64,000 nucleotides of DNA from Minisyncoccota bacterium (lineage in GTDB: Bacteria > Patescibacteriota > Microgenomatia > UBA1400 > UBA12028): the NCBI GenBank assembly GCA_003487265.1, contig DNEP01000001.1, forward strand, positions 24,572 to 88,571. The letters run 5' to 3'. The notes below the pieces were generated by a model. That model was not told where the DNA came from, did not search any database, and saw only the letters and a program-made list of their open reading frames with translations. Each line of letters starts with the position of its first letter. The first letter of the stretch is position 1. Positions 13,772 to 33,765 of the stretch are shown piece after piece. Both the position numbers and the translations under genes were made by a program.

Positions 13772-13778
13772 CGACATC

Positions 13779-14210: not shown

Positions 14211-14228
14211 CTGCACGAAGGAACAAAT

Positions 14229-14492: not shown

Positions 14493-14505
14493 AAAACGTA
14501 TACAT

Positions 14506-15216: not shown

Positions 15217-15266
15217 CGAATCGAGGTGTGATACACTTGCTACTCAAACTTTGAAGGAGAAAACGT

Positions 15267-15509
15267 ATGGTTAAGCTAAAATTGGTTCGCACTGGTCGAA
15301 AACGCGTCTACACCTACCGTATTGTGGTGGCAGAGGCGAAAAGCAAGATAAACGGGAAATATATCGACCTCCTTGGACATTACAACCCATCTTCAACACC
15401 AAAAGAGATCGTTCTTGATCTTGTAAAGTACGACGCATGGGTAAAAAAAGGCGCTCAGCCAACGACAACGGTTGCAAGCCTCGCAAAAAGAATGGCAATC
15501 AAAAAATAA
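15267..15509 (+). CDS. rpsP: 30S ribosomal protein S16
   Basis: MVKLKLVRTGRKRVYTYRIVVAEAKSKINGKYIDLLGHYNP is a typical S16 N-terminus. Confidence 0.9.
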   Translation: MVKLKLVRTGRKRVYTYRIVVAEAKSKINGKYIDLLGHYNPSSTPKEIVLDLVKYDAWVKKGAQPTTTVASLAKRMAIKK

Positions 15510-15527
15510 AGGCTTCATTCAAAGACT

Positions 15528-15803
15528 ATGAAATCTCTTCTTGAATACATTGTGAATCACCTCGTTGATCATCCCGAAGATGTGATGATTGAGGAACGCG
15601 AAGCGGAAGGTGTAAAAACCTACATCATTCACGCACACGCCGAAGATCTCGGAAAAATCATTGGAAAACAGGGACATATCATTTTTGCCATTCGAACACT
15701 CGCAAAGGTTCGTGCAGTCAAAGAAGGTATTTTGGTTCGTGTTGAGGTTGCTGAATCAGCGCCTCTTGAGACATCCGAGGCCGTTGGTTCCGAAGCGATC
15801 TAA
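15528..15803 (+). CDS. KH-domain RNA-binding protein (YlqC/UPF0109-like)
   Basis: KH core GKIIGKQGHIIFAIRTL. The gene sits directly after rpsP, as in the rpsP-ylqC arrangement of Firmicutes. Confidence 0.75.
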   Translation: MKSLLEYIVNHLVDHPEDVMIEEREAEGVKTYIIHAHAEDLGKIIGKQGHIIFAIRTLAKVRAVKEGILVRVEVAESAPLETSEAVGSEAI

Positions 15804-15835
15804 TTTTTTTCGACACTATTTTTCTCGTTAAATTT

Positions 15836-16669
15836 TTATCTCTCAAACGGATTTTCTTTTCCCGCAGATTGTGATGCCTCAAGCGCCTGAAGAATCTCAT
15901 TCATATTCACGATTTCCTTCACCGATCGAAGCGTTTTTGCAAAATCGTTGAGTTCGGCACGCAATATTGGTAATGTGTCACCGGTTAACTCGGGAATTGT
16001 GTCCATATAAAATGCAGACACCGTGAGTTTTGAAAGAAAAACCTTTCCAGATTCCGAACTTTCTTTTTCGGTATTTACACCTTCGATTGTTTTTCCAATC
16101 GATGTTTTTGACGATTTTCCCGAGCCTAATTCAATCTTTTCAAGATCGAAAACAGGCGCGATTTTCTGCATTTCGCCGATGTATGTTTGCACTTGTTCTG
16201 CTGTTCCCATAAGTGTAATTTCAAGCGCGAGTTTTGAAACTTCCTCACGACGTTTTTGAGTATTGAGCGATGCTTCATCTGTTGATACCAATCCTGGGGA
16301 GACGGAGATTCCAACAAATCGAACTCCCGTTTGATCGGCGAGTTTTTGTAATGAGTACATACTAATGAGGAAAGGTTTCGACGATGGGAGAAGGGAGTGA
16401 ATCTGCGCGCGTAACTGTTGGTACTCTTCGGTATTAAATTGATCTAAAAATGCGATTCTCGATTGTAATGTGGAAAGATCAGACTGTTGTTTTTTAAGTT
16501 CAGATTGATACGAACGGAACAACTCGAAGCGGGGGAGCATCACTTTCCACACCAAAAGTCCCATCACCACCCAAGCCAATACCGAAAAAAGAAGATATCT
16601 GCGATCACGAAAATTGTTTGCTCGTAGTGCTGAAGTGGTTTTTGCTGAAGATGATGGAAGTATCGGCAT
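15836..16669 (-). CDS. pilO: Type IV pilus assembly protein PilO
   Basis: Single N-terminal TM helix followed by coiled-coil and a periplasmic domain. Last gene of the pilM-pilN-pilO run. Start set at the internal Met (MPILPSS) so it abuts the pilN stop; the ORF-track start at 16843 would overlap pilN by 170 nt. Confidence 0.6.
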   Translation of the reverse strand: MPILPSSSAKTTSALRANNFRDRRYLLFSVLAWVVMGLLVWKVMLPRFELFRSYQSELKKQQSDLSTLQSRIAFLDQFNTEEYQQLRAQIHSLLPSSKPFLISMYSLQKLADQTGVRFVGISVSPGLVSTDEASLNTQKRREEVSKLALEITLMGTAEQVQTYIGEMQKIAPVFDLEKIELGSGKSSKTSIGKTIEGVNTEKESSESGKVFLSKLTVSAFYMDTIPELTGDTLPILRAELNDFAKTLRSVKEIVNMNEILQALEASQSAGKENPFER

Positions 16670-16670
16670 G

Positions 16671-17249
16671 TTATTTTCCTTTTTTCTCGGTTGGAACGGA
16701 GTAGGAGAGTTGACCAGTAATGGTGTACATTCCATCGCCTTTTCGCGAAAAATTCTGCATTGATACCGTGTATTTTTTCTTATCAATCGAGTCTGCGCGC
16801 AATGCGCGAAATGTTTCGATAAACGCAAAAACATCGTTTGCATTGATTACGTACGATAGTGATCGCGACTCGTTTTTCAGGGTGAGATCGGTAAGTACAC
16901 TGCCTTGTTTCACCAACGACTGGAGAAACCGCACCGCGTCTTGTTTTGCAACGCGCTCTTGGTTCATCGAAAAAAGATACGTGACTTTTTGCGCGTAAAT
17001 CACATAATCAAGTTGAATCGCTCTCTTCGATTGCAGTGTTTTTTTGGCCACCTCGATTTGTTTTTTGGCGTTCTCGATTTTATTTTGTAAATACCACGAT
17101 CCTCCCATAACACCGATTAAGAGAACCATAAACATTCCCAAGCCAACCGAGGTAAAAAATGAAATCTGCTTATCTCTGCGCAACTGTCTTTCAAGTTCGC
17201 GTTCGCGGTCACGTAAAAAATTGATGGAAGGAGTTACGGGCATATTCAT
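16671..17249 (-). CDS. pilN: Type IV pilus assembly protein PilN
   Basis: Short cytoplasmic N-terminus with INFLRDRERE and a single TM helix, as in PilN. Its start overlaps the pilM stop by 4 nt. Confidence 0.65.
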   Translation of the reverse strand: MNMPVTPSINFLRDRERELERQLRRDKQISFFTSVGLGMFMVLLIGVMGGSWYLQNKIENAKKQIEVAKKTLQSKRAIQLDYVIYAQKVTYLFSMNQERVAKQDAVRFLQSLVKQGSVLTDLTLKNESRSLSYVINANDVFAFIETFRALRADSIDKKKYTVSMQNFSRKGDGMYTITGQLSYSVPTEKKGK

Positions 17250-18295
17250 AGAACACCCTCAAGCGCATAGCCAAAACTCACAACGTACGATGGAATATCC
17301 GCGGGAAGCACCTTGACTGTTGGCGCAAAAACCATTTGTGATGGAATGAAGGGAGCAATTTCAACTTGGAACTGCTCTGCGAGAATCGCCGAGATCGAGT
17401 TCATCGCCGATCCACCTCCTGCTACCAGTATCTTTTGCACAGTTGCACCCTTAAATGATCCAGAAAAATACTGCATCGCTTTTTGCATTTCGTTCATGAA
17501 CGGTTGAAAAATTGGCATCATTGCTTGTTTAATTTTCCCTTCGAGCTGCGTCTCATCCATGCCGTAGGTTCGTTTGTATTCCTCGGCTTGTGAAGCGGAA
17601 AGCCCCAAACCACGTTCAATGGCGCGACTGAGCACCGCACCACCGTTGGGATACGAATACGTGAACGCGAGTTCGTGGTTGTGCACCACAACCATATCGG
17701 TGGTGGTTGCGCCGATGTTCACGATCAGCGTGGTGGGGAGTGTGTGATCCAAGTTCGCGAGTCGAAAAATCGACATCGTCTGCGTGCCTAATGAGCGCAC
17801 ATCAAGACCAGCTTGATAAAATAAATCAACATAACTCGTGACAAATGTCTTTGAAACGCCAATCATGAGCACACGCATTTTTTGCGAGGGATCGTTTTTT
17901 GGTGGGCGATACAACACTTGATATTCCAACTGAAGATCGTCTGCGGGAATGGGAATGTACTGTTCTGCCTGCCATCCAACCGCCGAGGAAAGTTCTTGAT
18001 CGGAAAGATGGGGCATTTCTACGATTTTTGTTGAAACAAACGCCTCGGGAAGTCCAACATGCACTTCTCCAGAAGGAATAGTTTGATCCTTTATCATGTG
18101 CTTGAGAAGTTCGACAAATCGATCGCGGTCGGCTTGTTGCGATGGAATCACCAGTCCAAGCGGATTGGCGATCATTGATGCGCGCTCAACGATGAACGCA
18201 TTTTTTTGCTGTCGCAACGCAACCGTTTTTATCGAGTATGTTCCGACATCTAATCCAATATGTAATCCCATGGGCAGTCCTTTACCTATCATCAT
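17246..18295 (-). CDS. pilM: Type IV pilus assembly ATPase-like protein PilM (actin-like fold)
   Basis: GLDVGTYSIKTVAL start and an actin/FtsA-like phosphate motif series (IGATTTDMVVV, LVAGGGSAM). Position upstream of pilN-pilO. Confidence 0.75.
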   Translation of the reverse strand: MMIGKGLPMGLHIGLDVGTYSIKTVALRQQKNAFIVERASMIANPLGLVIPSQQADRDRFVELLKHMIKDQTIPSGEVHVGLPEAFVSTKIVEMPHLSDQELSSAVGWQAEQYIPIPADDLQLEYQVLYRPPKNDPSQKMRVLMIGVSKTFVTSYVDLFYQAGLDVRSLGTQTMSIFRLANLDHTLPTTLIVNIGATTTDMVVVHNHELAFTYSYPNGGAVLSRAIERGLGLSASQAEEYKRTYGMDETQLEGKIKQAMMPIFQPFMNEMQKAMQYFSGSFKGATVQKILVAGGGSAMNSISAILAEQFQVEIAPFIPSQMVFAPTVKVLPADIPSYVVSFGYALEGVL

Positions 18296-18304
18296 AGCAA
18301 ACGT

Positions 18305-19168
18305 TTACGGTGTTGTCTTTACAATATCGGTCCCAGAAATCATAGAAAATTCAAGAAAAGAGAGGGGCATGGGGAGCGATCGAATCACTTGAATCGCTTT
18401 TTTTTCATCCCCGTCGGTGTTTTCCGCCTTCGCAACAACGCTCCATTGAACGGCATCCGATCCTAACGCCGTGCCGGAAACTCGAATGTTTGTATCGGAA
18501 GAAAGCGCACGAACAGAAAACACACGTTCTTCACTTGTCGATGAATTTCCTGGAGAAAATTCTAATCTGCGTGTAAAGGCGGAGTTTCCATCTGCGCTTA
18601 TATCTTCACCCGATGCTTCAAAACAGGTGGGATCGGACGGATCTTCGGGATCACAGTCTCTTCCGTTATAGGCTGCCGTTTTCGACCAATACGTATTCGA
18701 TGTCGCAGAATAAAAGTAGCGAGTAATCAACAATGATGCTTGTTGCGCACCACCTTCGGGTGGATTTTTCTGATTCCATTCGAGAACAAGCGTTCCCGCA
18801 CTATCCACAGGAACCGCCAGAGGAATCATTACCGACTCACCTTCGAGAAGTGAAAAATCGAGTTTTTCGAGTTGTGGAGTAATCGCGTACTCTCCGTATC
18901 CATCCACACTTCCCGAAACCGCGTCGTTTGAAAATGAATCCGCCTGAGACAGCGCCTCTTCCAGCACGGTCTCTGCCGATTGAAAGGTTGAGGAACTGTT
19001 CTGTTCCTGACGTGAAAGTGCAATATCTTGCACCGATCGATTCGCAACCGACACGCCCACCCCTAATACAACCGCCATCACAAGCATCGCGATAAGCGCG
19101 ACTTGCCCCGACTGTTTTGCGTATTGCCGTTCGGTATACAAATGAAAATCTGGAAAAAAATGTTTCAT
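18305..19168 (-). CDS. PilX-like minor pilin / pilus-associated membrane protein
   Basis: N-terminus QSGQVALIAMLVMAVVLGVGVSVANRS resembles the PilX_N helix. It is followed by a secreted-type domain with conserved Cys pairs, and lies between the pseudopilin genes and pilM. Confidence 0.45.
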   Translation of the reverse strand: MKHFFPDFHLYTERQYAKQSGQVALIAMLVMAVVLGVGVSVANRSVQDIALSRQEQNSSSTFQSAETVLEEALSQADSFSNDAVSGSVDGYGEYAITPQLEKLDFSLLEGESVMIPLAVPVDSAGTLVLEWNQKNPPEGGAQQASLLITRYFYSATSNTYWSKTAAYNGRDCDPEDPSDPTCFEASGEDISADGNSAFTRRLEFSPGNSSTSEERVFSVRALSSDTNIRVSGTALGSDAVQWSVVAKAENTDGDEKKAIQVIRSLPMPLSFLEFSMISGTDIVKTTP

Positions 19169-19190: not shown

Positions 19191-19706
19191 TCATTTTCTC
19201 AAAGTCACGGTTGTCTGAAATACTTGCGTGGCGGGAACAGCAACCGAACGTTCTTGCTTAATTTGTAGTCCAAAAGAAATGCTCACCGAACTGTACGTTT
19301 CTCCAACCCCCGTTGAGCAAGAAAACGTGAGTGGATATGCATCGGGAACGAGCACAAACGCATCCGTAAAATAGGAAACCGAACTGCCGGAAGCGCTCGC
19401 GATTCTATCACTATCTGTTTGAAGCGTTGTTTTTCCAAAATCAGCATTAATCAACTCAAGATGATCTGATTCACACACAGAAATCCGCTGCGCGTTTCGC
19501 ACCATCGCCTCAAGGTGGGTGAGGGCAACGCTTCCCTGTTGTTTGAGATCGGTGCTAATCGAGATGTGCTCATCACTTCGAAGCGTTGTGAGAAACACGC
19601 CAACAATCGCAGATGAAATCAGCACAAAAACCGAAATCACGATGATCAGCTCGATGAGCGTAAAACCACGTTGACTTGATTTTGATTTGTGATTAATCTT
19701 CATCAA
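19191..19706 (-). CDS. Prepilin-type (pseudopilin/minor pilin) protein
   Basis: Prepilin N-terminal motif QRGFTLIELIIVISVFVL with Glu at +5. Confidence 0.7.
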   Translation of the reverse strand: MMKINHKSKSSQRGFTLIELIIVISVFVLISSAIVGVFLTTLRSDEHISISTDLKQQGSVALTHLEAMVRNAQRISVCESDHLELINADFGKTTLQTDSDRIASASGSSVSYFTDAFVLVPDAYPLTFSCSTGVGETYSSVSISFGLQIKQERSVAVPATQVFQTTVTLRK

Positions 19707-20218
19707 TCAATCCTTTTTTTGTAGTTCATCTCTAAAGATGAGGATAGTTCGGCATCGGATCCATCATCTAACCGTGCTTGCGATACTGCGGTAACCTCAT
19801 CGGCTGTGATGGTAATCACGACCGTTCGCAAAAAAGAGGTTGTGGGAATAAAATCTGTACATCCGTCAACTGTCGTTAAAAAGGTTTCGGTATTCAAGGT
19901 TGTTCCGTCCACAACCGTTGGAAGCGCGGGGAGCGTGGGAACACACCACACGCTGTGTGAATCGGCGGTTGCGGTTTGAAGAGAGGCAACAAACTCCGCC
20001 CAACCTACTTTTTCCCGATACGCGTGCAACCACTCAAGCGGTTGTTTTGCATAGTACACGAGATGTTGATGTTGTTCGCTTGATCGTTGTGAGCGAACGA
20101 CAAGCGTAATCGTTGACATCACCGCCACCAGCGCAATTGATACAATGGCAAGCGCGACCAAAACCTCGATCAGTGATGACCCTCGTTGTTTTTTTGCTGA
20201 AATAAAAAAAGCGTTCAT
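19703..20218 (-). CDS. Prepilin-type minor pilin
   Basis: QRGSSLIEVLVALAIVSIALV prepilin methylation/cleavage motif. 4-nt overlap with the downstream gene. Confidence 0.65.
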   Translation of the reverse strand: MNAFFISAKKQRGSSLIEVLVALAIVSIALVAVMSTITLVVRSQRSSEQHQHLVYYAKQPLEWLHAYREKVGWAEFVASLQTATADSHSVWCVPTLPALPTVVDGTTLNTETFLTTVDGCTDFIPTTSFLRTVVITITADEVTAVSQARLDDGSDAELSSSLEMNYKKRID

Positions 20219-20220
20219 TG

Positions 20221-20733
20221 TTATGGGATCTCCACAAGGTTCGCATCCGAAATACTACCCGAATCATCAATGGTAATGGCGATATGTCGATCGGTTGCTC
20301 CGATTTTTCGCAAATGCAAGGTTGTTGTTTCCATCGAAGAAGCGCCGATCCCCCGCACAGGCGTCGCGAATCGAATGATTGCAGGTTCTTCAAATTCATA
20401 TCCCGCGGGAAACGGGATGTACGTAATTGAAGGGGTACTTGGATCACAGATCGCGTTAATCTGATATTGATAGGAATAGAGATCAAATAACACTTGATAT
20501 CCTGTTAATGGACTCGTCGAACAATCGGCCGGTTTTTCCCCACTCAGCGCGCTTTTTTGAACCTTTCGCAAGGTTGTCACCGCTTCTTTTCCCGCGTGTA
20601 ACAACGACTGCGTTTCATTGTATTGATTGAATCCCGCCACAGAAACTCCAAGAAATAACATCATAATTGCAACGGAGACAAGCAACTCGATCAAGGTAAA
20701 ACCATGATGAACAGAAACAGAGGCAGTGTGCAT
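20221..20733 (-). CDS. Prepilin-type minor pilin
   Basis: HHGFTLIELLVSVAIMMLFL prepilin motif. Confidence 0.7.
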   Translation of the reverse strand: MHTASVSVHHGFTLIELLVSVAIMMLFLGVSVAGFNQYNETQSLLHAGKEAVTTLRKVQKSALSGEKPADCSTSPLTGYQVLFDLYSYQYQINAICDPSTPSITYIPFPAGYEFEEPAIIRFATPVRGIGASSMETTTLHLRKIGATDRHIAITIDDSGSISDANLVEIP

Positions 20734-20766
20734 AGAAAAAGTATACCGTATTTTGTGAGGAGAAGG

Positions 20767-21207
20767 TTAGGGGTTTTCAAAACAACACGAAAACGGCTTC
20801 GCCGTACCCGAACAAGTCATTCCATCCTGAGTTGATGTTTCAAAATTCGCACAGAGCGAGTACGATTTATTGTCTGCACTCGGTGTGTAACTGTACACGT
20901 ACGGTGCGTCGTTTTGCGGATCGTACATTGAGGGGACAGAGAGGTAACTCGCACCGTTTAAAGTTGTAATCATTCCATCCCAAGTTTCATCGCTGGGATA
21001 GGTCAACAGTGGAGGTTGAGAGCGATACATTTCCAGCGCTGTGCGCACTTGACTCAAATCGGCTTTACGCTTTCCGTCGCGGGCTTTTGCGGATGACGCG
21101 GTGTAACTCACAATACCAATCGTCGCCAACAACGCGAGAATTGTCGTTGCGACAAGAAGTTCTATCATGGTAAATCCAAAAGATGATTTATTTTGAAAAC
21201 GTAACAT
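20767..21207 (-). CDS. Type IV pilin / GspG-like pseudopilin
   Basis: SFGFTMIELLVATTILALLATIG followed by ARDGKRKADL, a GspG/PulG-like signature. Confidence 0.75.
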   Translation of the reverse strand: MLRFQNKSSFGFTMIELLVATTILALLATIGIVSYTASSAKARDGKRKADLSQVRTALEMYRSQPPLLTYPSDETWDGMITTLNGASYLSVPSMYDPQNDAPYVYSYTPSADNKSYSLCANFETSTQDGMTCSGTAKPFSCCFENP

Positions 21208-21228
21208 ATCGCATGCTTTCTCGTATTG

Positions 21229-21642
21229 TTATTGCTGTTCCTTCACACAAAAATATGGACTTCCCGCATCCGAACTAAAGGTACACGTCGTATTTTCACT
21301 GTTTCCTTTAAGATTCTCCAACGGAGCGCAAATACAGTAGGTGGATGTACTACAGTTATTCGTGTAGTATATCCACTCCGATTGATTTTTTGGATCAACG
21401 GGAACTCCTGCGGGGAGATAATCGGTTGTGGGGACACAGTCTGCGGGATAGTTTCCGGCATTCGCCTTTTGCTGTTCAAGTGCAGATTGCCACGCTCGCA
21501 TATCGGCTTTTCGTTTTCCGTCGCGGGCGGTTTTTTGACCGTTGGTGTAGCTCACCGCACTAACGCTGAGCAAAATTCCAATGATTGAAATCACAACGAG
21601 TAACTCAAGCAAGGTAAATCCGAACGACTTGATGTGTTTCAT
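21229..21642 (-). CDS. Type IV pilin / GspG-like pseudopilin (paralog of the 20767-21207 gene)
   Basis: MKHIKSFGFTLLELLVVISIIGILLSV followed by ARDGKRKADM. Start moved to the internal Met (ATG at 21642) because the ORF-track N-terminal extension is non-pilin sequence. Confidence 0.75.
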   Translation of the reverse strand: MKHIKSFGFTLLELLVVISIIGILLSVSAVSYTNGQKTARDGKRKADMRAWQSALEQQKANAGNYPADCVPTTDYLPAGVPVDPKNQSEWIYYTNNCSTSTYCICAPLENLKGNSENTTCTFSSDAGSPYFCVKEQQ

Positions 21643-21724
21643 AGTACTAGTATGGGTATCGGGCAAGAGCCTGTCAAGCGAGAAATCGATATTCGGTGTT
21701 GTCGAACCAGCGTTTGCCATATGA

Positions 21725-24700
21725 TTACGGTGCGATCTCGAACCAATCGTACGTTGATTTTTTCAAGGAATCAGGAGCGTTCAACACCAGATCGGGTCGG
21801 ACAAAAAACACTTCCGCGGGAGAGTCGTTGTTTCCAATTCCACTCAAGTTTCGCTCAAGATTAAATCCTTGCCATCCCACAAAAGTTCCCGCACCAATGA
21901 ACTGCGTGTCACCCGAGCCGTCGGTATTGGTACCTGTTGAGATTGTTCCATCGGCAACATACACCCCTTGAACCATTGCCTCTGCAAGCGCGGTTTCTGC
22001 GTATGCTTCCATTTCAAGTTCGTCGGCACTCAACGGCTCCGCAAGTCCCAATGATGCATCAATGGAGATATCTCCACTCGCAACAATCATTAAGAAACCA
22101 CCCAGCTCTACCGTGATTTGGTTTTCGATCACAACATCTCCATCGACAACAAGAATGGCACGCATGGATGATGGAATGGTGAGATCTCCGTTTACGACAA
22201 TTGTATCTGAAGCGAAAAACGCATCCGCGTCTGCGTTGGCGTACGGTTGGGTAAACAAAGATGTATCCGAAAGTTCATGCGGAAGCGCTTGGTTTGTGAA
22301 ATCGTCTACGGGAACTGCGGGAAGATTGAGCATCTGTTTGAGATACGCATATCCCGTTTTTTCTGCACTTGTGGATAGGGTCGCATATTTTTCTGCATCT
22401 TTTTCATCTTCAGCACGAATCGAACCGTTCCCCAACGAAATATCGGAAAGCATCTCGCCGATTAGCGGGAATCCCGAGGTGTTGTCCCGTCCATACGTGG
22501 GATTTGGATTTCCATGGGCGTATTTTTGCATAAGCGTATACGAAGTGGGTGTGCGTAGGGGAATTGCTTGACCAATCGATCCATTTCCTCCTCGTGAGGG
22601 AAGCGCGCCCACCATCACGCTCCCACCAAAAACTTGAAACCACGCATCGGAAACACTCAAAACCGTATAATCTTGCGTGATTACATCGTCTGAAACAACC
22701 GAAATCGTTGGAGTCGTTTGAGGACAGACGAGTCCGTAGCCGGGCAAACCAAATATCGTGCCGTTTGTGATGCTAGGGCGGTATGTGGTGGCTTGATCTA
22801 ATCCTAAGGTTGGTACTTGCACACTATATCCCCCAAGCACATCTGCGGAATCGTTATATGATCCAAAATCTGTTGAAGAATATGAAATAGACGGGAGCGG
22901 ATCGGTAATTGGAGTACCCGGTGTACAGGTTGATGATTCGGTAATGGTTCCCTGAATTGTTGCGACACAAGAATCATTTTCTATTTGTGGGTGCTCGGTT
23001 GAACAAAAATGCGTTCCCGTACGCGTCCCTCCATCACAGACATCCGGCTCCCAATCGATGGTATCGGAACAGTACACAGCGTTGTCGTTTTCGGAACACG
23101 ACACATACCCCACACTCTCACAATCAACTGTTCCTCCATAGGCTTCATATGAACAAAACGGATTCCCCGAACACAACGGCTGGGGATCGGCTTCGTCGGT
23201 GTGAACCGAACAATGAAAATAATAATCTTCAGAAGAAACGATAAGATCATCTATTGAAGCGGTGCACGATTCTCCTGCGGATGCAGAACATTCATCAAGC
23301 TTGTAGACCGTTTCTCCAAATGCGTTCACTTTAAGAATGGTGTTCGTTTCGGATGTTGGAGGCGCGAGAAGATCGTCTCCATCTCGTTGCTCAGCAAAAA
23401 TTCGCACTATTGCGTTATTCAGCGACCCCCCTGTTCCCGTTGCCGAAACGGAAACCAATTCGTTTTGATCGGTCCCCGATAAAGTCGAAACCGTAATTGA
23501 ACAAGTGGAGTTGTCAACTACGGGCGGAGGAGTCGTGGACTGTTGACACGGTTGATACTGTGAAGAAGGAATAATCGTCCATTCTGCAGGCCACGCATCG
23601 GTTGGATTTGCCCGATATCGAGAAAGCACCGTAAGATTTCCCTGGTAAGTTATTGATGCGTCACCAATCACATGCATTCCTTGGACAGGATAGGGGACTC
23701 CTCCGTGAATATGAAAGTGTTGATCGTCGAACATTGCCAGTTCCGTTTGTGGATCCTCTCCACCCAAAGAAAGTTTGTACACCCCAGAAATTCCCATTAA
23801 TGCATCGGGGTCTGCGGGCCACGGGTTGTACCAATCTCCCGCACCATACGCACCAAATGCAAAAGCCGCTTGCAAGTTCCCATCGCTCCCTGGTCCCGCG
23901 GGTTCACGCTGAATCTTGAATTGATAATACCCATCAACTGGTGGAACAAAATACCCAATGTATGATGTGAGCGTCCACCCTCGGCACTCATCCATCGCAA
24001 AATACGGAATAGTGCTTGAAATGGGTTGAAACGGAGCGCCTGCCGCCCATCTTGTGTCAACATACGCAGAATCAGGAAGATATTCGTACGCAAACCGCAT
24101 CCATCCCGATGCGCTACTCAAGCTTCGATACACGCGCAGACCCGAGGTTGGTTCACCCGTAGGAACCGATCCATCTGCATTACACGCTGATGCGATTGGA
24201 CCAGAAGTTGAACACGATGAGGGTGGGGGTGGCGTTTCTCCACCTTCACCGCCACCTGGGAGCGTTGAACCGGGGCAACACCCGAGGAGTTGCCAGCGTT
24301 CAAAAGGTTCACCTGGAACATAGCTTTGTTCATCCCGCAACACATCGCAGTCTGAATATCCGTGAACGGTGCAGTCGCCAACACAACTGCCATCGTACCC
24401 TGCATTGAATAGATTATCGGACTCTGGCACACATGGGCAGGTAGTTTCACCCTTAAGAATCGGATCGTAACAAAGATCATCCGCTTGAGAACACCACCCT
24501 TTGCATTGACCAATATTCCACATACGAGTGGCAGAGGAATAATACTCACCCGATCCGCGCAACGTGCAGTAATTTGTCCCATCTAAGGTGTACGCATTGC
24601 ACGTCGAACTCTGAGAAATCGTCGTTTCTGCACATGCTTGTCCTCCTTCAGCGACCCGACAAGAAGAGACCACGGAAATTCCAGTCGTCGCATCTTGAGG

Positions 24701-24793
24701 ACAGGTGAGTCCATCACCACAGTACTGATCCGCACGAACCATCCCAACAGAACCAAAGCTCAAAAAACAAAAAAGGACAAGAATTTTTTTCAT
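21725..24793 (-). CDS. Large (1022 aa) Cys-rich secreted protein with a PA14-like segment, a candidate pilus-associated adhesin
   Basis: Signal peptide MKKILVLFCFLSFGSVGMVRA. More than 60 Cys in CxxC/CxC-rich modules. The segment LTSYIGYFVPPVDGYYQFKI...DDQHFHIHGG resembles the PA14 core (GYF.PP.tG.Y.F). It sits directly upstream of the minor-pilin block, where PilY1/PilC-type tip adhesins usually lie. Confidence 0.45.
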   Translation of the reverse strand: MKKILVLFCFLSFGSVGMVRADQYCGDGLTCPQDATTGISVVSSCRVAEGGQACAETTISQSSTCNAYTLDGTNYCTLRGSGEYYSSATRMWNIGQCKGWCSQADDLCYDPILKGETTCPCVPESDNLFNAGYDGSCVGDCTVHGYSDCDVLRDEQSYVPGEPFERWQLLGCCPGSTLPGGGEGGETPPPPSSCSTSGPIASACNADGSVPTGEPTSGLRVYRSLSSASGWMRFAYEYLPDSAYVDTRWAAGAPFQPISSTIPYFAMDECRGWTLTSYIGYFVPPVDGYYQFKIQREPAGPGSDGNLQAAFAFGAYGAGDWYNPWPADPDALMGISGVYKLSLGGEDPQTELAMFDDQHFHIHGGVPYPVQGMHVIGDASITYQGNLTVLSRYRANPTDAWPAEWTIIPSSQYQPCQQSTTPPPVVDNSTCSITVSTLSGTDQNELVSVSATGTGGSLNNAIVRIFAEQRDGDDLLAPPTSETNTILKVNAFGETVYKLDECSASAGESCTASIDDLIVSSEDYYFHCSVHTDEADPQPLCSGNPFCSYEAYGGTVDCESVGYVSCSENDNAVYCSDTIDWEPDVCDGGTRTGTHFCSTEHPQIENDSCVATIQGTITESSTCTPGTPITDPLPSISYSSTDFGSYNDSADVLGGYSVQVPTLGLDQATTYRPSITNGTIFGLPGYGLVCPQTTPTISVVSDDVITQDYTVLSVSDAWFQVFGGSVMVGALPSRGGNGSIGQAIPLRTPTSYTLMQKYAHGNPNPTYGRDNTSGFPLIGEMLSDISLGNGSIRAEDEKDAEKYATLSTSAEKTGYAYLKQMLNLPAVPVDDFTNQALPHELSDTSLFTQPYANADADAFFASDTIVVNGDLTIPSSMRAILVVDGDVVIENQITVELGGFLMIVASGDISIDASLGLAEPLSADELEMEAYAETALAEAMVQGVYVADGTISTGTNTDGSGDTQFIGAGTFVGWQGFNLERNLSGIGNNDSPAEVFFVRPDLVLNAPDSLKKSTYDWFEIAP

Positions 24794-24841: not shown

Positions 24842-25408
24842 TTATCGTGATAGACGAATGGATAGTGCGGGAATAATCCGAGAAACTCCCTGCCTATACT
24901 GAACCCAATCGTTCGAAGAAGAAAACGTGGACGCGTACTGCAATAGATTGCAAAGACGCGTTCCATGTTGACATTCAAGTAAAATGTCTTTTTGCTGCAG
25001 TGACTGTACCGATCCAATATAGTCCACTTGAATTTGATCACCCTTTTTAAGAAACCGTTTGTATTCTTCCAACGTTTTTGGACGAACAAATGCATCTGAT
25101 TTCGAAACCAACGGAAGTGGATCAATCGAAAGAAGATCAAATGTACCAGATAACAACACACGCTCGGATCGTTTCTTGCCAAATTGATCCACATATCCAA
25201 CCTGCACACTCAACACGCCATTTTCTTCGAGAACATCCTCAACTTTTGCTTGAAATGGAGAAACTTGAACCGTTCCCCCAAAAAGTGTGTAAGTCTGATC
25301 AACTGGGGGAGACTGAGGATTGTTTTTGCGGAACAAAAAAAAGACAGCAACGACAGCTCCCAAAATGAGAACAGCTAAAAGAACGCGGAGGGATGTTAAT
25401 TTCTTCAT
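24842..25408 (-). CDS. Hypothetical membrane-anchored protein (188 aa)
   Basis: N-terminal TM/signal anchor (LLAVLILGAVVAVFFL) then a soluble domain. Located inside the pilus locus. Confidence 0.4.
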   Translation of the reverse strand: MKKLTSLRVLLAVLILGAVVAVFFLFRKNNPQSPPVDQTYTLFGGTVQVSPFQAKVEDVLEENGVLSVQVGYVDQFGKKRSERVLLSGTFDLLSIDPLPLVSKSDAFVRPKTLEEYKRFLKKGDQIQVDYIGSVQSLQQKDILLECQHGTRLCNLLQYASTFSSSNDWVQYRQGVSRIIPALSIRLSR

Positions 25409-25447: not shown

Positions 25448-28120
25448 TTATGGTGCATTTGGCTCGATAAGAGTTGTAGATCCAATTAGCGCAACATCCT
25501 TTGATACTTGGATTGTGGGATACGCTCCAGAGTTAATGAACGCGAGAAATTGATTGTGAAACTCAGTATCTTGCACTTCTTGATATACACTCGTGACATA
25601 ATCTCTCGGAACTGTTGAAAAATGAACAAGCATGCTACCAATTAGATCTCCTGCTTTGAATAGACGTATATATTCTTCAACTACTTTCACGGTTGTTTGA
25701 TGATCTTTGTACTCTCCCGTTTCTGTCTGAATATCTTCAAGAAATAACATTGAACCACCTGTTGCACTCATCGTCAAGTCTGGCATTAATCCATCAATCC
25801 AATACGCGTATAGTTGTTTACCATATTGTGTGACCATCAACCTCTCAAGAACGCGAACCGTCTGTTCTTTATCTTCAAGATTCTGAAATGTTTTCTCAAC
25901 CACTCGCCATTGACCCGTAAATACCCCCATAAACTCATCAGTAGTCAGTGTAAAAAGATCTGGTGCTCTTCCATACGTTCTCACCTTGTGATATTTCAGC
26001 ATCGTCTTGTTTGGCGTCGACTCATTCCCAGGGAACCATCCAGTCTTCCACAGTTCCTCCACACTCGGCACGGCGTGGCGCCACATGGTTTGGATATCAT
26101 CCTTGTCAAACCAATCCAACTTACGCCATTCACTCGTTTCGGGATCAAGAATCGCCATGTGCATATCGTTCATGGTGTTGGTGAGCACCGTCGCCCGCGT
26201 AAGTTGACCATTTAAGGACACATCGGCTTCATGCACAAGATAAGTCTGCGTGAGATCAAGATTGAACTCAATCGCGAATTGATACGCTTCGGCGGTCCAC
26301 CACCCATTTTGCATCAACACGTACTCAATCTCGCCACCTTTTTTTTCAAGCGCAACGCGCCCGTCGCTTGTTTGGACAGGCGAATAGTCTTCGAGTTTAA
26401 TCTTCACGTCGCGCGAAAACAACGCGCCATCTTCAGATAACGTTCCTTTCGCATCGCTCATCCACGATGGATTTTCAATTGAAGATGCTCGCAAATTCAA
26501 ACTAAATCGCGCTTCACCAGCACCAACAAACTCCAACCAAGGAATGTCTTGATACTCGATCTTTGAACCCATTTCTTTCGCCTGCTCAAGCGGAATCTGA
26601 ATACCCCAACCCTCACCCGTCTTCGGATCGACATACTCAACATACGCGCGCCCAGAAGAACCAACAGGAGCGGGACCTTCAACGCGATTTTCAACAAGAA
26701 CAGCACCCAAACTTTCGAGTTGCAGTCGCCATTCAGATCCAATATTCAACAGTTTCCACTCCACAAACACCCCGTTCTGTGTCCCCACGAACTGTTCTTT
26801 TCCATCTGGGGTCACCGCGAGAAACTGGCTTCCTTTTTTGGCAATATACACTTCTTTTTCTTCCTGCGAGTCCGAAAGCGAAATGATGTGTGATTGTGGT
26901 CGGGTAAGTTGAATTCCACTCCCAATCAAAGTCTCCATCCCATAATACGTGATAACCCACGTGTTAATGCCATCCATTTCCTTCAACACGGCAAGAGGGG
27001 AATCTTGATCGGAATCTTCAAAATGGATTTCTGTGTCGTTCTCAGTAAAAACATACTGCGCAACTGAAGAGAATCCTAAATCATTCGCCAATGATTTCGC
27101 CGTTTCTGCAAACGTTTGCGGAACTTCCGTAGGCGCTGGCTGTGGCAGAGCCTCGACCGTCACTTCGGGAGTGGTAATTGGTTGAAGTGCTCCCGCTACG
27201 GCATCAATGGGGAGAAAGAGAGAAAGAAGTGAAAAACCTGTTGCAGAAGTCATCTTCGCCATAAGCTCAGTATATTGTTGATTGGAAACTTTCTTTGGAG
27301 CTCCAAACAGTACGCTTTCAACTTCACCTGTAAATACACCATTTTCATCGACAGGATAATAGAAAAATTCTGCAACGATGGCATATCCATCCTTTTCTGG
27401 AGTGATATAGATTGCAAAATGCGTATTTGGTTTTGTGACTTCCTTGCCACTTACAATAACAGTTTTTTCAGTTGAAAATAAAAATATATCCGTTTCCCCC
27501 TCATGCGTTTTTCTAATCTGATCCACAACTGCGGTTTGCGTCGGAACGGCAGTGGGTGCTGTCGTTGGTGTGGATGGAGTATTCGAAGAAGATTCCTCAG
27601 TTGTTACGTCTTTTAAATCCTCAAGGAATAACTCAGAAAACTCTGGTGTTTGAGTTGGGAGAGGAGGTGGGAACAATGTCACCTCTTGTTCATTTCGATA
27701 TGTCAAACTCGCGGGAATATATACAGCCGATTCACCATCATATAAAAGTGGATAGACAATTGTGGCATTATCCGTAGCAATAACAATGATTTGTAGTTGA
27801 TATCTAGAAAAATCGAGAGTTTTATGCTCTCGTTTAAACTCTTCGTAGTAAGAAGCAACGCGAGTCGCAACATCTTTGGCAACAACGTTCCAAGACACGA
27901 TCGAGTTTGGAAATTCAACAGACAATAACTGTTGTTCAATTTCCTCCGCATCTGAAGTCGCAGGAAAAATAAACTCTTCTTTTTGTGTTTGATCTTGAGA
28001 TTGTGTTTCGATTTGCGCTTCCTGAGTTGAAAGCGCCTGAGATGCACCCGAACACGCTTCGAGTGCGACTGCTCCAGCTGTGAAAGCAATCCCCACTCTA
28101 TACAGGTTTCTCTCGCTCAT
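25448..28120 (-). CDS. Large (890 aa) putative lipoprotein / secreted protein
   Basis: N-terminal signal with the lipobox-like VALEACSG. Low-complexity Thr/Pro/Glu-rich linker regions. No enzymatic motif recognised. Confidence 0.4.
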   Translation of the reverse strand: MSERNLYRVGIAFTAGAVALEACSGASQALSTQEAQIETQSQDQTQKEEFIFPATSDAEEIEQQLLSVEFPNSIVSWNVVAKDVATRVASYYEEFKREHKTLDFSRYQLQIIVIATDNATIVYPLLYDGESAVYIPASLTYRNEQEVTLFPPPLPTQTPEFSELFLEDLKDVTTEESSSNTPSTPTTAPTAVPTQTAVVDQIRKTHEGETDIFLFSTEKTVIVSGKEVTKPNTHFAIYITPEKDGYAIVAEFFYYPVDENGVFTGEVESVLFGAPKKVSNQQYTELMAKMTSATGFSLLSLFLPIDAVAGALQPITTPEVTVEALPQPAPTEVPQTFAETAKSLANDLGFSSVAQYVFTENDTEIHFEDSDQDSPLAVLKEMDGINTWVITYYGMETLIGSGIQLTRPQSHIISLSDSQEEKEVYIAKKGSQFLAVTPDGKEQFVGTQNGVFVEWKLLNIGSEWRLQLESLGAVLVENRVEGPAPVGSSGRAYVEYVDPKTGEGWGIQIPLEQAKEMGSKIEYQDIPWLEFVGAGEARFSLNLRASSIENPSWMSDAKGTLSEDGALFSRDVKIKLEDYSPVQTSDGRVALEKKGGEIEYVLMQNGWWTAEAYQFAIEFNLDLTQTYLVHEADVSLNGQLTRATVLTNTMNDMHMAILDPETSEWRKLDWFDKDDIQTMWRHAVPSVEELWKTGWFPGNESTPNKTMLKYHKVRTYGRAPDLFTLTTDEFMGVFTGQWRVVEKTFQNLEDKEQTVRVLERLMVTQYGKQLYAYWIDGLMPDLTMSATGGSMLFLEDIQTETGEYKDHQTTVKVVEEYIRLFKAGDLIGSMLVHFSTVPRDYVTSVYQEVQDTEFHNQFLAFINSGAYPTIQVSKDVALIGSTTLIEPNAP

Positions 28121-28132
28121 ACGTGTATTGTA

Positions 28133-28933
28133 TCACAAAAGACCAAAATACCACGAAAGAAGCGGTTCACCCCAAATCAAAGAGAGAACTGACCCAAGAA
28201 TCAAAAACGGGGCAAACGGTACAACCTGCCCAAACTTCTTTTTTCGCGCAACGAGCAGGGCAACCGCCACCACCGCCCCAATAATAAATGCGAGATACAC
28301 CGCCAAAATCGTCTGCGGAAACCCCAAAATCAAACCCAATGGAAACATAAACTTCACATCTCCAAGTCCCATCCCGCGCCCCTTCGTTATACGAACCAGC
28401 GCATAAAAAAGGAGAGAAAATCCGAACGCGGATGCAATCGCCATCCAATAGTCATATGGTTGGAAAATCCCCGCGATAAGGAGGGCGGAACGGTACATCA
28501 GCGCCAACACAGAAAGCACCACTACCAGCACATCAGGAATGACATATTTAAACAAATCGATGAAAAAAACCAAAATAAAAATAATCCCCACGACCAACCA
28601 AAAGGCCGGCTGAAGATAGGTAAACGGCGCGCGGGCGAGCTGGAAAAAGGTAAACCCAATCAAGTACCACCACACAAACATCACACCAGTAATCGCTTCG
28701 ATCAGCGGATAACTCGCATCGATGCGCTTGTGGCAGGTGCGACACCGCCCCCGAAGCGCCAAAAACGACAACAACGGAATGTTTTCATACCAAGCAAGTT
28801 GACGCTTACAATGATCGCAGTAGGACCGCCCATACACGAACGATTCTCCTCGAGTCATGCGATAGATCACCACATTCAGAAACGACCCAATTGCCGAACC
28901 AAACGCAAACAAAAACAGCATCATCACAATCAT
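28133..28933 (-). CDS. pilD: Prepilin peptidase (A24 family) PilD
   Basis: N-terminal tetra-Cys zinc motif (CDHCKRQ...CRTCHKRI) and about 8 TM helices with conserved Asp regions (ALMYRSALL...GLGDVKF). 4-nt overlap with the upstream gene. Confidence 0.85.
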   Translation of the reverse strand: MIVMMLFLFAFGSAIGSFLNVVIYRMTRGESFVYGRSYCDHCKRQLAWYENIPLLSFLALRGRCRTCHKRIDASYPLIEAITGVMFVWWYLIGFTFFQLARAPFTYLQPAFWLVVGIIFILVFFIDLFKYVIPDVLVVVLSVLALMYRSALLIAGIFQPYDYWMAIASAFGFSLLFYALVRITKGRGMGLGDVKFMFPLGLILGFPQTILAVYLAFIIGAVVAVALLVARKKKFGQVVPFAPFLILGSVLSLIWGEPLLSWYFGLL

Positions 28934-29613
28934 AGAAAGATGTTAATCCCAAACACGATTTCGATAATCTGGCCGATCCAATAGGAAAGGAAGAGGAGTA
29001 AGAACCCAACCACCGCCCAGGTGATGCGGTTTTTTCCCGCTTCTTGCGCCTTTTGGTCCGTCGCCCCGAGGAGCATCTCGAAACCTCCCCAGACGATCAT
29101 TACGAACAGGGTAAATCCCGCAAATGCAAACAGGAATGGAAACGAGTAGGCGATGATTTGACCAAGCGTGAGGGTAGAGGGATCCACTCCAACATTTTGC
29201 GAACCAATTTTGTTGAGCTGGATCGCGTTGTTGATTGTGTCTCGCATTTTCGCGGGGTTGAGGGGGAGAGGGGGTGGGTTTGCTCCAGTGGGAATTAATG
29301 CTGGAGTCAACACGCAATCTTCAAAACAAATTTGACCATCAAAACTTGGTGCGCAACACGCAACTTCATCGGGTTCATAATCTGCATGACATGTCGTCAA
29401 TTGGGGTGACACGCATAATCCACACTCAATCGCACAAGAAACGATCTTATCATTTGAAACAGATGAAGAATATGAATATAGTTCTCCAAAATCAGTCTTT
29501 TGATAACACTCTGTCCCTTCTTTACAAGAATATACAGGTGCAGCCTGCGCAACGCCTCCCCACACAAAAACACTTGTGAAAAACAAAGTGAGAAAAAGAA
29601 AGGTTTTTTTCAT
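28930..29613 (-). CDS. Cys-rich secreted protein with a C-terminal two-helix membrane hairpin (VirB2/TrbC-pilin-like architecture)
   Basis: Signal peptide MKKTFLFLTLFFTSVFVWGGVAQA and a Cys-rich extracellular domain with about 14 Cys. The C-terminus has hydrophobic helix 1 (YSFPFLFAFAGFTLFVMIVWGGFEMLLGA), a short charged loop (TDQKAQEAGKNR) and hydrophobic helix 2 (ITWAVVGFLLLFLSYWIGQIIEIVFGI). Confidence 0.4.
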   Translation of the reverse strand: MKKTFLFLTLFFTSVFVWGGVAQAAPVYSCKEGTECYQKTDFGELYSYSSSVSNDKIVSCAIECGLCVSPQLTTCHADYEPDEVACCAPSFDGQICFEDCVLTPALIPTGANPPPLPLNPAKMRDTINNAIQLNKIGSQNVGVDPSTLTLGQIIAYSFPFLFAFAGFTLFVMIVWGGFEMLLGATDQKAQEAGKNRITWAVVGFLLLFLSYWIGQIIEIVFGINIFL

Positions 29614-29614
29614 C

Positions 29615-30502
29615 TTAAAATCCTGGTAACTTCAAAATGTCTACGCCGATTGTTCGTAAAATGACCATCGAAAAAATGATGAATAAAAGACCACTTATCG
29701 CCGCGGTGATGTTGTTCTTTGCTTCATCAACCTTTTTTGGTTCTCCTTGACTTGTGGTAAGTTGAAAAGCTGCAGCAAGGATGGTGAGCAACACCACACC
29801 ACCGCCAATACTCAGACTTAAGCGCACAATCGACACAATGATTCCCTCAGGGGAACTCGGGATACACCCTATCGCGGTCCAGATGCCTTTCTCAAAAGTG
29901 TTCCCAGCACATGTCGTATTTAATGGATCCCCAGTCACACATTGACAACACACCGCGCGATCATCGGCATTTGAAATTTGTTTACAAGGATTAAAAGTAC
30001 TAGAAAAAATTGCAGGGTACTGACAAATTTTTTGGAAATTATATTCAACACATTTTTGATCAGGATCAATACAATCATCTTTCTTTCCATCATTGTCTAT
30101 ATCGGTACATGCTTGACCTAAATATCCTTCATAACTCGAGAGAGATGAATTTTCTAAAGAAGGATAACATATATGTTTTTCAATTCTTGATGGGGGACTA
30201 TTAGGAATTGGAATATACGCACTTAAAACAACAGAGCACCCTTCGATTGTTAAACATGAACTTGTATTCAAATTTTCCCGAGGGTTATCGCACTGAAAAA
30301 GTTTTGAACTACATTGATCTAAACCCGAACCAGCAGGGTTAACCGATTCTACAGAATACCCAGAATCTACGTGATCAGTACAACCATCAAAAGTTGTTGC
30401 TGCAGCCCGAACTTCGGCTCTAGGCAAAAAAGCCAAAAAGACAAAAAGAAAAACCACAAATACGGCCAAAAATCCCGATAATACTCGTTGTTTTTCCTTC
30501 AC
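29615..30502 (-). CDS. Cys-rich secreted protein, paralog of the 28930-29613 gene, with the same C-terminal two-helix hairpin
   Basis: Same architecture: signal-like VLSGFLAVFVVFLFVFLAFL, a Cys-rich domain, and a C-terminal helix / short charged loop (TTSQGEPKKVDEAKNN) / helix. Probable GTG start at 30502, immediately preceded by TATAAT; the ORF-track ATG at 30610 is an alternative. Confidence 0.4.
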   Translation of the reverse strand: MKEKQRVLSGFLAVFVVFLFVFLAFLPRAEVRAAATTFDGCTDHVDSGYSVESVNPAGSGLDQCSSKLFQCDNPRENLNTSSCLTIEGCSVVLSAYIPIPNSPPSRIEKHICYPSLENSSLSSYEGYLGQACTDIDNDGKKDDCIDPDQKCVEYNFQKICQYPAIFSSTFNPCKQISNADDRAVCCQCVTGDPLNTTCAGNTFEKGIWTAIGCIPSSPEGIIVSIVRLSLSIGGGVVLLTILAAAFQLTTSQGEPKKVDEAKNNITAAISGLLFIIFSMVILRTIGVDILKLPGF

Positions 30503-30656
30503 GTCTTCAATTATACACACTCCTCGTGGTGTTGTGCAGTGCGAAAATGCAAAACCAACGTGGGCTTTCAGTTTCAATATCACGCATCCAAGAACGGCCT
30601 CTAAACCCAAAGACCGCCCCTTTCGGGGCGGTCTGCGTTTTCAACATAAGCAGGTT

Positions 30657-31322
30657 TTACGGAAGACAGAGGAGTTCGTTTACATAGACGTCTTCGATTC
30701 CATAGTTCCCATCACCATCTCCATTCGGACAAGCGATTTCTTTGATTCCCGTTTCGTATCCACTGTTTACACAGTTTCGAATTGCTTCTCGCTTGAATGC
30801 TCCAGAAGATGGCATGAAACATGCGTACATCGTTGCGTCGGAGCCCTCAGGTTTGTAGGCAAAAATCATGTAGTTTTCCTGATTTTCCAATCGAGAAATA
30901 TATCCTGATTTCACCTCACCAGAAGTACTCAACAAATCAAGCCATGCCGATTCGGGGGAAAGACGACATGCGCCCTCACCAAAAAGTGCAGTCCCATACC
31001 CATCATCCATCGTTACTCCACAAAACTCACCAGCGGTGTCTGGCATAACAACCGTAGGTTGTTGATTATCTTCCGTAGGTGCGGTTTCTCCATCAGTCGA
31101 GATTTCATTCCACGGATACTTTTCCGCACTTGCGTAGTAGCGATCAACCGCATTAATCAACTGCGCGGCATCGGATCGCATACGCGTATCTCTTCCTTTA
31201 TTGATTTGTTCAATTGGGTTAATAGATGACAACACCGCCGTTGCGAGTGCGCCAATAACCGCGATCACGACGAGCAGTTCGATCATCGTAAAACCTGCGG
31301 TTTTCATAAATGACTTCAGCAT
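30657..31322 (-). CDS. pilA: Type IV major pilin PilA-like
   Basis: MLKSFMKTAGFTMIELLVVIAVIGALATAVL is a class III signal peptide with Gly at -1, Phe at +1 and Glu at +5. GGAG lies 7 nt upstream of this ATG. Directly downstream of pilC. Confidence 0.8.
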   Translation of the reverse strand: MLKSFMKTAGFTMIELLVVIAVIGALATAVLSSINPIEQINKGRDTRMRSDAAQLINAVDRYYASAEKYPWNEISTDGETAPTEDNQQPTVVMPDTAGEFCGVTMDDGYGTALFGEGACRLSPESAWLDLLSTSGEVKSGYISRLENQENYMIFAYKPEGSDATMYACFMPSSGAFKREAIRNCVNSGYETGIKEIACPNGDGDGNYGIEDVYVNELLCLP

Positions 31323-31381
31323 TTGTACTCCTTCACTTTTATTCAAACGACCTGATGGTCTGTATACGCATTGTGGTCATA

Positions 31382-32584: not shown

Positions 32585-32593
32585 TTCGTCCTT

Positions 32594-33712: not shown

Positions 33713-33765
33713 CTTTCTCCTTTTATCTATTAATTTTTTATCTATTGATTCAGTATGGCGTTTTT

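Follow-up and report, generated by a model that had tools for sequence, protein, structure and literature searches.

The window analysed here is the whole 64,000-nucleotide (nt) stretch of contig DNEP01000001.1 (assembly GCA_003487265.1, positions 24,572 to 88,571) from a Minisyncoccota bacterium. It contains a type IV pilus locus in which every gene lies on the minus strand, and the gene under study, hereafter the target, is part of this locus. The open reading frame (ORF) of the target occupies 21725..24793 on the minus strand and starts with ATG; its 1022 codons encode a protein of 1022 amino acids (aa). In order of transcription, the locus encodes PilB, PilT, PilC, a pilin, two PF18895 'T4SS_pilin'-like proteins, PilD, an 890-aa protein, a 188-aa protein, and the target, followed by five prepilins, a PilX_N-like protein, PilM, a PilN-like protein, and a PilO-like protein. 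The target protein was divided into the following features.

24731..24793 (-): signal peptide MKKILVLFCFLSFGSVGMVRA, aa 1-21, with predicted cleavage before D22; assigned by sequence inspection, and a similar peptide is present in most complete family members.
24179..24727 (-): N-terminal Cys-rich module, aa 23-205, with 18 Cys (Cys map) and a Gly/Pro-rich linker at its end.
23546..24148 (-): orphan region, aa 216-416, previously read as PA14-like; the motif concerned is aa 277-295 (nt 23909-23965).
23069..23533 (-): repeatable middle module, aa ~421-575, defined by phmmer matches in a few family members.
22724..23068 (-): rest of the second Cys cluster and a Thr/Ser-rich linker region, aa 576-690 (Cys map).
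21728..22696 (-): conserved Cys-free C-terminal domain, aa ~700-1022, related to DUF7305; its last residues are W-x-E-I-A-P.

The N-terminus of the target, MKKILVLFCFLSFGSVGMVRA followed by DQ, showed on inspection the n/h/c layout of a Sec signal peptide, and most complete relatives likewise carry a signal peptide with Cys-rich sequence directly after it. An earlier reading of this DNA, made from its letters without database searches (the sequence-only reading), had proposed a secreted protein with a classical signal peptide, and this proposal held. The same reading had called the cysteine content extreme. The content is indeed elevated, at 35 Cys in 1022 residues spanning aa 9-690 (34 of them in the mature protein), but 3.4% is not extreme. 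The Cys residues fall into two clusters, aa 25-204 and aa 502-690, and the Cys map of the whole protein had none after aa 690. The modules had further been described as rich in CxxC and CxC, which the motif count did not bear out: there was one CxC, one CC, and no CxxC. In the N-terminal parts of the family, the median Cys content was 6.5% (5.1% in the target), and the near-invariant columns of alignment A3 in the Cys-rich stretch were A30, C32, C47, C54, and C81. Since Cys-rich N-terminal parts occur throughout the family, the Cys-rich character is a family trait and not a peculiarity of the target. The most likely reading of the sequence is that the target is a Sec-exported, disulfide-rich, modular surface protein.

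The part of the protein ahead of the C-terminal domain gave few matches. A Pfam scan of the N-terminal Cys-rich module had no match, and no Pfam family was found for the middle module or for aa 576-690. The middle module was matched by phmmer in five family proteins, P0054 (two copies), P0105, P0053, P0013, and P0025. The NCBIfam scan of the target matched no family, and BLASTP against all ORFs of the window revealed no paralogue. The same protein sequence occurs on 20 metagenomic contigs. A word-indexed homologue search with the whole target returned only a truncated near-identical copy. P0001 is a 579-aa protein on a 3.6-kb ENA contig; its aa 1-560 are identical to those of the target, after which it diverges to an early stop. 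It is probably either a frameshift or assembly error of a contig from another sample or a natural truncation that removes the C-terminal domain.

An exhaustive phmmer search with the target gave a different picture. Matches were obtained in at least 1,124 representative clusters (clustered at 50% identity) at E<=1e-3, including 471 at E<=1e-10. Nearly all of them were restricted to aa ~685-1022 of the target and lay at the C-terminal ends of the subjects themselves, whose lengths ranged from about 300 to 1,600 aa. An alignment of 22 C-terminal domains (A1) defined a well-conserved domain of ~320 aa with invariant residues that include W718, G724, G943, W974, R981, R999, D1001, W1017, and the terminal P1022, all of which are present in the target. 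The target carries the full domain at its extreme C-terminus, with the W-x-E-[VI]-x-P end. A leave-one-out family profile scored 245.7 bits against the target, its sole match in the window; the matched segment runs from aa 687 to 1024 in the numbering of the stop-to-stop ORF, which exceeds the protein by two residues, and corresponds to aa ~685-1022 of the protein. The prepilin motif was found in none of 149 relatives. The phyla holding the family are Patescibacteria and Chloroflexota.

DUF7305 (PF23981) was matched by 14 of the 22 family members at E<=0.1 (best E 8e-9). The target itself scored 17.5-18.6 bits, under the gathering cut-off of 27. Positions 46-108 of the DUF7305 profile align to the core where the C-terminal domain is best conserved, aa ~855-914 in the target, a match that covers about one-third of the Pfam model and about one-fifth of the ~320-aa family domain. 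Judged by these profile matches, the target is best filed in a DUF7305-related family of unknown function, and its predicted C-terminal domain, which the sequence-only reading did not mention, is the feature that ties it to a family. Our literature searches found neither a function nor any mention of DUF7305/PF23981, and these searches, including those on PilY1 in the candidate phyla radiation, yielded no description of the family or of its link to pilus loci. The suggestion of a new adhesin family calls for qualification, as the C-terminal domain relates to an existing Pfam entry of unknown function and adhesion is only a putative role.

The C-terminal domain was modelled with AlphaFold2 (AF2) from 20 usable sequences. 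The mean predicted local distance difference test score (pLDDT) was 52.7, with aa ~859-979 at 65-88; this section was modelled as a run of short strands with the solenoid-like turns typical of a beta-solenoid. A Foldseek search of PDB gave no match at E<=0.001, and the TM-scores normalised to the query were at most 0.22. ComZ of Thermus thermophilus (6qvi) headed the result, with E 0.017-0.053 and probability 0.84-0.96, together with the solenoids of ice-binding proteins (5b5h, probability 0.97, root-mean-square deviation 3.1 over 133 columns; 4nu2 was among the further ones). These leading hits are coherent, and they are suggestive only, as is the assignment of the modelled domain to the beta-solenoids. 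The C-terminal domain of tapirin was also listed and was not significant (E 1.2, probability 0.04). Sequence searches of PDB with the whole target and with the family profile returned nothing meaningful.

The genes around the target in the window were assigned as follows.

28133..35592 (-): upstream pilus part, consisting of PilB, PilT, PilC, a major-pilin-group gene, two T4SS_pilin-like genes, and the prepilin peptidase PilD (Pfam T2SSE, T2SSF, Peptidase_A24, PF18895).
30657-31346 (-): the major-pilin-group gene, by its major-pilin orthogroup.
25448..28120 (-): 890-aa exported or membrane-anchored protein, first position of a three-gene cassette.
24842..25408 (-): 188-aa protein with an N-terminal transmembrane (TM) helix, directly upstream of the target; positional partner.
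19703..21720 (-): four prepilin genes, two GspG-like (163 and 146 aa), one GspH-like (170 aa), and one PilV/GspI-like (171 aa), by Pfam N_methyl, NCBIfam, and orthologous groups.
19191..19706 (-): GspJ/ComGF-like minor pilin, 171 aa (NCBIfam gspJ and ComGF).
18305..19168 (-): PilX/GspK-like protein, 287 aa (PilX_N at E 0.0088).
15836..18295 (-): pilM, pilN-like, and pilO-like genes at the end of the operon (PilM_2 at E 7e-44; PilN/PilO homologues recur in related loci).

The five genes directly after the target on the same strand (21229-21720, 20767-21207, 20221-20733, 19703-20218, and 19191-19706) all encode the prepilin N-methylation motif, in agreement with the earlier placement of the target directly upstream of five minor pilins. 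In the PilX_N-like protein, Glu is absent from position 5 of the predicted mature N-terminus (...SG/QVALIAML), as is expected of a capping subunit of the GspK/PilX type; the protein also gave a weak DUF7261 match. Between the major-pilin-group gene and pilD, two adjacent proteins of 227 and 331 aa are encoded (28930-30610, minus strand), each with a Cys-rich N-terminal part and a C-terminal match to PF18895 'T4SS_pilin' (E 9e-8 and 1.5e-5). A Pfam scan of the 890-aa and 188-aa proteins had no match. Beside pilO/N/M, at 13600-17300, lie genes for NusB, acyl carrier protein, RNase III, S16, and a KH-domain protein, which have counterparts in the related loci L005, L006, and L025. RecG, DNA polymerase III delta', and gyrB are also near the pilus locus, in a block that is syntenic across distant Patescibacteria. 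This synteny indicates that the pilus locus occupies a stable chromosomal neighbourhood and not an island. Elsewhere in the 64-kb window, a 1658-aa ORF (1379-6355, minus strand) had Peptidase_M48 at aa 97-177 as its sole Pfam match, and no rRNA gene was present.

One genome per species was scanned for the family, which gave 78 loci; ORFs were called in them and searched with the pilus proteins of the window and a prepilin regular expression. The loci were mostly from Patescibacteria (Woese-, Pace-, and Collierbacteria, Microgenomates), with a few from Chloroflexota. Many records, among them L008, L011, L013, and L015, are titled 'uncultured Pseudomonadales' or 'Gammaproteobacteria' and have pilus loci and synteny of the Patescibacteria type; these titles look wrong, and the isolate name HK-STAS-PATE-15, found among the seemingly mislabelled records, contains 'PATE'. 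Linkage was counted in 40 loci with large flanks on both sides, in which pilus genes were sought within 10 kb. The family gene lay inside a pilus locus (PilB/T/C/D/M) in 26 of these 40, and a rough estimate of the chance expectation is a few percent for genomes of ~1 Mb. The sequence-only reading had taken absence of the gene from the pilus loci of relatives as a sign of an unrelated insertion. Because the gene recurs in the pilus loci of many species, such an insertion is unlikely.

In 34 of 77 loci, the stop codon of the family gene is followed at once by a pilin gene on the same strand. When pilins were grouped after removal of the shared N-terminal helix, these directly downstream pilins formed an orthologous group of their own (33 of its 37 members are such pilins). 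The window contributes to this group the GspJ/ComGF-like pilin at 19191-19706, which lies in the operon of the target but four genes further on. L025 has the family gene immediately next to a PilX-like gene, after which come pilMNO and the housekeeping genes that the window also has. Family genes are found in tandem in L024, L026, L031, L040, L045, L046, L050, L054, and L068, where the GspJ-like pilin then follows except in L026; two large family copies lie a few kb apart in L047, L053, and L065.

Almost everywhere, even where pilus genes are lacking, two genes precede the family gene. The nearer encodes a protein of ~170-250 aa with an N-terminal TM helix, and its stop often overlaps the start of the family gene; the farther encodes an exported or anchored protein of ~500-960 aa, some copies of which have Tat-like signals. 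In the window, the 188-aa and 890-aa genes sit at the positions of these two partners. A seed-only profile of the ~200-aa TM proteins gave a weak match to the 188-aa ORF (12.1 bits, unique in the window), and neither phmmer nor an iterated profile linked the 890-aa protein to its positional counterparts. Together, the 890-aa, 188-aa, and family genes look like a conserved three-gene cassette of unknown function. The Chloroflexota metagenome-assembled genomes L021, L035, L051, and L063 (Aggregatilineales, Anaerolineales, Caldilineaceae) have the family gene and no pilus genes within 10 kb, and in L021 and L035 the upstream protein bears the Tat-like signal SRRDFLKLSG...

Given this gene context, the likeliest reading, which we put at an even chance, is that the target is a non-pilin, PilY1-like type IV pilus tip adhesin or cap. 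The sequence-only reading had argued from size and position that the gene mirrors PilY1/PilC1; the target is indeed ~1000 aa long and heads a minor-pilin operon, and this positional argument is strengthened by the recurrence of the family in pilus loci beside GspJ- and GspK-like minor pilin genes. Several observations weigh against a role at the pilus tip. No pilus gene lies within 10 kb in 14 of the 40 well-flanked loci; every one of the four Chloroflexota loci belongs here, as do several Woesebacteria/Microgenomates loci that rank with the best C-domain matches of the target. The most constant neighbours of the family are not pilins but the ~200-aa TM protein and the ~600-aa exported protein, and these two could form an anchoring or export system of their own. 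Support from structure is weak (mean pLDDT 52.7, all Foldseek E values above 0.001, query TM-score <=0.22), and no binding module has been identified in the target itself.

The same 14 unlinked loci favour another explanation, in which the target is a pilus-independent surface protein (an adhesin, an S-layer protein, or a cell-wall-associated protein), the solenoid and the two upstream partners form their own anchoring or display system, and the position in pilus loci reflects co-regulation only. It is consistent with this explanation that the cassette is kept without nearby pilus genes in L008, L015, L019, L020, L027, L037, L042, L060, L063, and L069, and that the target has no prepilin leader. 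The strong enrichment in pilus loci, the recurrent adjacency to one minor-pilin orthogroup or to a PilX-like gene, and the identity of the best, though weak, fold match as a pilus tip protein argue in the opposite direction, and we consider a pilus-independent role somewhat unlikely. In Neisseria, pilC1 and pilC2 are likewise unlinked to the minor-pilin operon; for this reason, unlinked copies of the family do not argue against a pilus role.

To compare the rates of change along the protein, pairs of family proteins with related C-terminal domains were examined. The N-terminal part was more diverged than the C-terminal domain in all but one of the non-identical pairs listed, and the two were equally diverged in that pair. 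The identities of the C-terminal domain and the N-terminal part were, for example, 93% versus 25% (L012/L013), 81% versus 40% (L005/L079), and 96% versus 80% (L046/L050). A Pfam scan of 52 full-length relatives detected F5/8 type C, GBS_Bsp-like, Big_2, Big_7, SdrD_B, and TSP_1 domains and one GH2 in some of the variable parts. The fast divergence of the N-terminal part, the adhesion and glycan modules, and the tandem duplicates are the pattern expected for an outward-facing recognition protein that is attached by way of a conserved domain. In polymorphic toxins the N-terminus is conserved and the C-terminus varies, opposite to the arrangement in this family, which makes a toxin unlikely. A sortase or PEP-CTERM-type sorting signal is also unlikely, as both the C-terminal TM segment and the motif are absent.

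The conservation of the C-terminal domain, which suggests a conserved interaction, might instead reflect a protein that is mainly an assembly factor. Such a protein would prime or stabilise the minor-pilin initiation complex, or aid passage of the fibre across the wall or S-layer of a monoderm lacking PilQ, and would not bind a receptor. The operon shared with core minor pilins and pilMNO fits this idea, as does the analogy with PilY1 and with ComZ/PilA2 in priming or tip formation (PMC6561018; PMC11623550). We nevertheless judge it markedly unlikely that this is the principal role, since the N-terminal part diverges fast and swaps modules, the adhesion- and lectin-type modules of relatives fit outward-facing recognition better, and several loci hold tandem duplicates.

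A more specific proposal of the sequence-only reading was that the central stretch contains the core of the PA14 carbohydrate-binding domain. This was evaluated with the Pfam models of PA14 (PF07691) and GLEYA (PF10528), membership being defined as a score at or above the curated gathering score. GLEYA scored 12.8 bits on the whole target (E 0.16) and 15.2 bits on the excised segment (E 0.027), against a cut-off of 26.2. PA14 scored 12.7 bits on the excised segment (E 0.11) against a cut-off of 24, at profile positions 52-67 of 147. The target thus reached neither gathering score, its scores being about half of the curated cut-offs. The sub-threshold matches were confined to SYIGYFVPPVDGYYQFKIQ (aa 277-295), a hairpin motif, and aligned 16-19 residues of the ~90-147 profile positions; the DDQHFHIHGG stretch, which had been cited as part of the PA14 core, lay outside every reported Pfam match. 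A 'DD' stretch in PA14 lies within about 10 residues of a GxYxF-like motif, whereas in the target it lies about 70 residues past such a motif.

Homologue searches of the same region were negative. Exhaustive phmmer listed no match over aa 1-400 except the truncated copy of the same protein, a local search of 168 family proteins and of every ORF in 81 loci gave no match to aa 205-420, and a PDB sequence search with the PA14-like segment found nothing meaningful. A word-indexed search with aa 205-421 was also empty, a weak negative since it missed even the truncated near-identical copy. The structure prediction that the sequence-only reading had recommended for this region was uninformative: a single-sequence AF2 model of aa 210-420 had a mean pLDDT of 31.3 and was unusable for fold assignment. 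With sub-threshold profiles, no homologues, and an uninformative model, the PA14 reading is unsupported; what the earlier reader saw is a genuine motif-level resemblance to PA14 and nothing beyond it.

A PA14/GLEYA-type lectin domain at aa ~250-420 that binds host glycans is accordingly unlikely, and this question is independent of the other readings. In its favour, GLEYA and PA14 both place their best weak match on the hairpin SYIGYFVPPVDGYYQFKIQ, and galactose-binding-like domains are present in the variable parts of other family members. Lectin-like accessory domains have also been proposed for pilus proteins of Saccharibacteria (PMC11623550). The two profile matches are not independent, however, because the PA14 and GLEYA models are related, and none of the 52 full-length relatives has a PA14 domain in the Pfam scan. 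The empty homologue searches, moreover, left no profile to be built for aa 205-420.

Three known systems resemble the target functionally, namely PilY1/PilC, ComZ, and cyanobacterial PilX; by analogy it may act as they do, and in sequence it is a member of none. It shares with PilY1/PilC a size of ~1000 aa, a Sec signal in place of a prepilin leader, a gene that lies with those of the core minor pilins, and a conserved C-terminal domain behind a variable N-terminal part; it is a non-pilin and has no GFxxxE motif. The PilY1/PilC domain gave no Pfam match at E<=10 and no NCBIfam match at E<=1 in the target, in line with the earlier statement that the sequence is unrelated to those proteins. The C-terminal domain of PilY1/PilC is a beta-propeller, whereas that of the target looks, in the model, like a beta-solenoid. 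The target also differs in its Cys-rich N-terminal part, and its family, found in monoderm Patescibacteria and Chloroflexota, has two additional conserved partner genes upstream. PilY1 of Myxococcus has been linked to priming in a study cited in PMC11623550.

ComZ is a competence pilin with a large solenoid that has been argued to fit only at the pilus tip (PMC6561018). Its binding partner is the neighbouring minor pilin PilA2, and the fold most like its own is that of FfIBP, 4NU2 (PMC6561018). The best, albeit weak, structural matches of the C-terminal domain of the target are ComZ and the solenoids that ComZ itself resembles. In cyanobacteria, PilX solenoids have been proposed as a tip plug where PilY1 is absent (2026 preprint, bioRxiv 10.64898/2026.02.12.705559). 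Like ComZ and PilX, the target is encoded beside a partner minor pilin. In those proteins, however, the solenoid is inserted in a pilin fold, whereas the target has no pilin helix or prepilin motif (Pfam detected no N_methyl match in it), and its putative solenoid stands free at the C-terminus, preceded by ~700 aa of other modules. No sequence-level similarity to ComZ was found.

PilX1 and PilX2 of Nanosynbacter lyticus TM7x (Saccharibacteria) are candidate tip adhesins of the pilin type, with accessory jelly-roll or propeller domains for which glycan binding has been suggested (PMC11623550). They belong to the same superphylum as the target and pose the same question of host recognition at the pilus tip, but they are pilin-like with C-terminal accessory domains, and no homology to the target was seen. 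No Saccharibacteria were named among the 78 loci, many of whose record titles give no reliable lineage. The tapirins of Caldicellulosiruptor are also comparable, being non-pilin beta-helix surface proteins of a monoderm that are encoded beside pilus genes; NCBIfam tapirin had no match to the target.

If the target is a tip adhesin or cap, its C-terminal domain would dock on the minor-pilin priming complex, which the GspJ-like and GspK/PilX-like subunits form, and would serve there as a non-pilin cap or plug. Extension driven by PilB would carry the protein to the tip of the type IV pilus. There the fast-evolving Cys-rich N-terminal and middle modules would contact the target surface, probably the envelope of a host bacterium in the case of episymbionts, and retraction by PilT would then draw the cells together. 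Within this reading, family membership, domain arrangement, gene surroundings and the pattern of conservation were observed; docking, placement at the tip and adhesion are inferred. By extension, Patescibacteria, and perhaps Chloroflexota, may have a pilus tip unlike those of all described systems: the solenoid plug would be neither an insertion in a PilX/ComZ pilin nor supplanted by a PilY1 propeller, but the C-terminal domain of a separate Sec-secreted protein seated on GspJ/GspK-like pilins, the two upstream membrane proteins might help, and the swappable Cys-rich N-terminal modules would be determinants of host range. This broader proposal is tentative, and we regard it as possible but less than probable.

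Type IV pili have been shown to drive host binding in Saccharibacteria (PMC11623550). Type IV pili are nearly universal in Patescibacteria. A widespread family that combines a conserved docking-type domain with changing outer modules, encoded beside tip minor pilins, provides a concrete tip candidate, and the C-terminal profile provides a sequence handle with which the family can be found in any genome, so that host specificity becomes testable. Should the link to the pilus prove wrong, there would still be a large uncharacterised family of surface proteins, encoded in a conserved three-gene cassette in two monoderm phyla. If the link is true, the family would add to the emerging view that a beta-solenoid caps the pili of lineages lacking PilY1.

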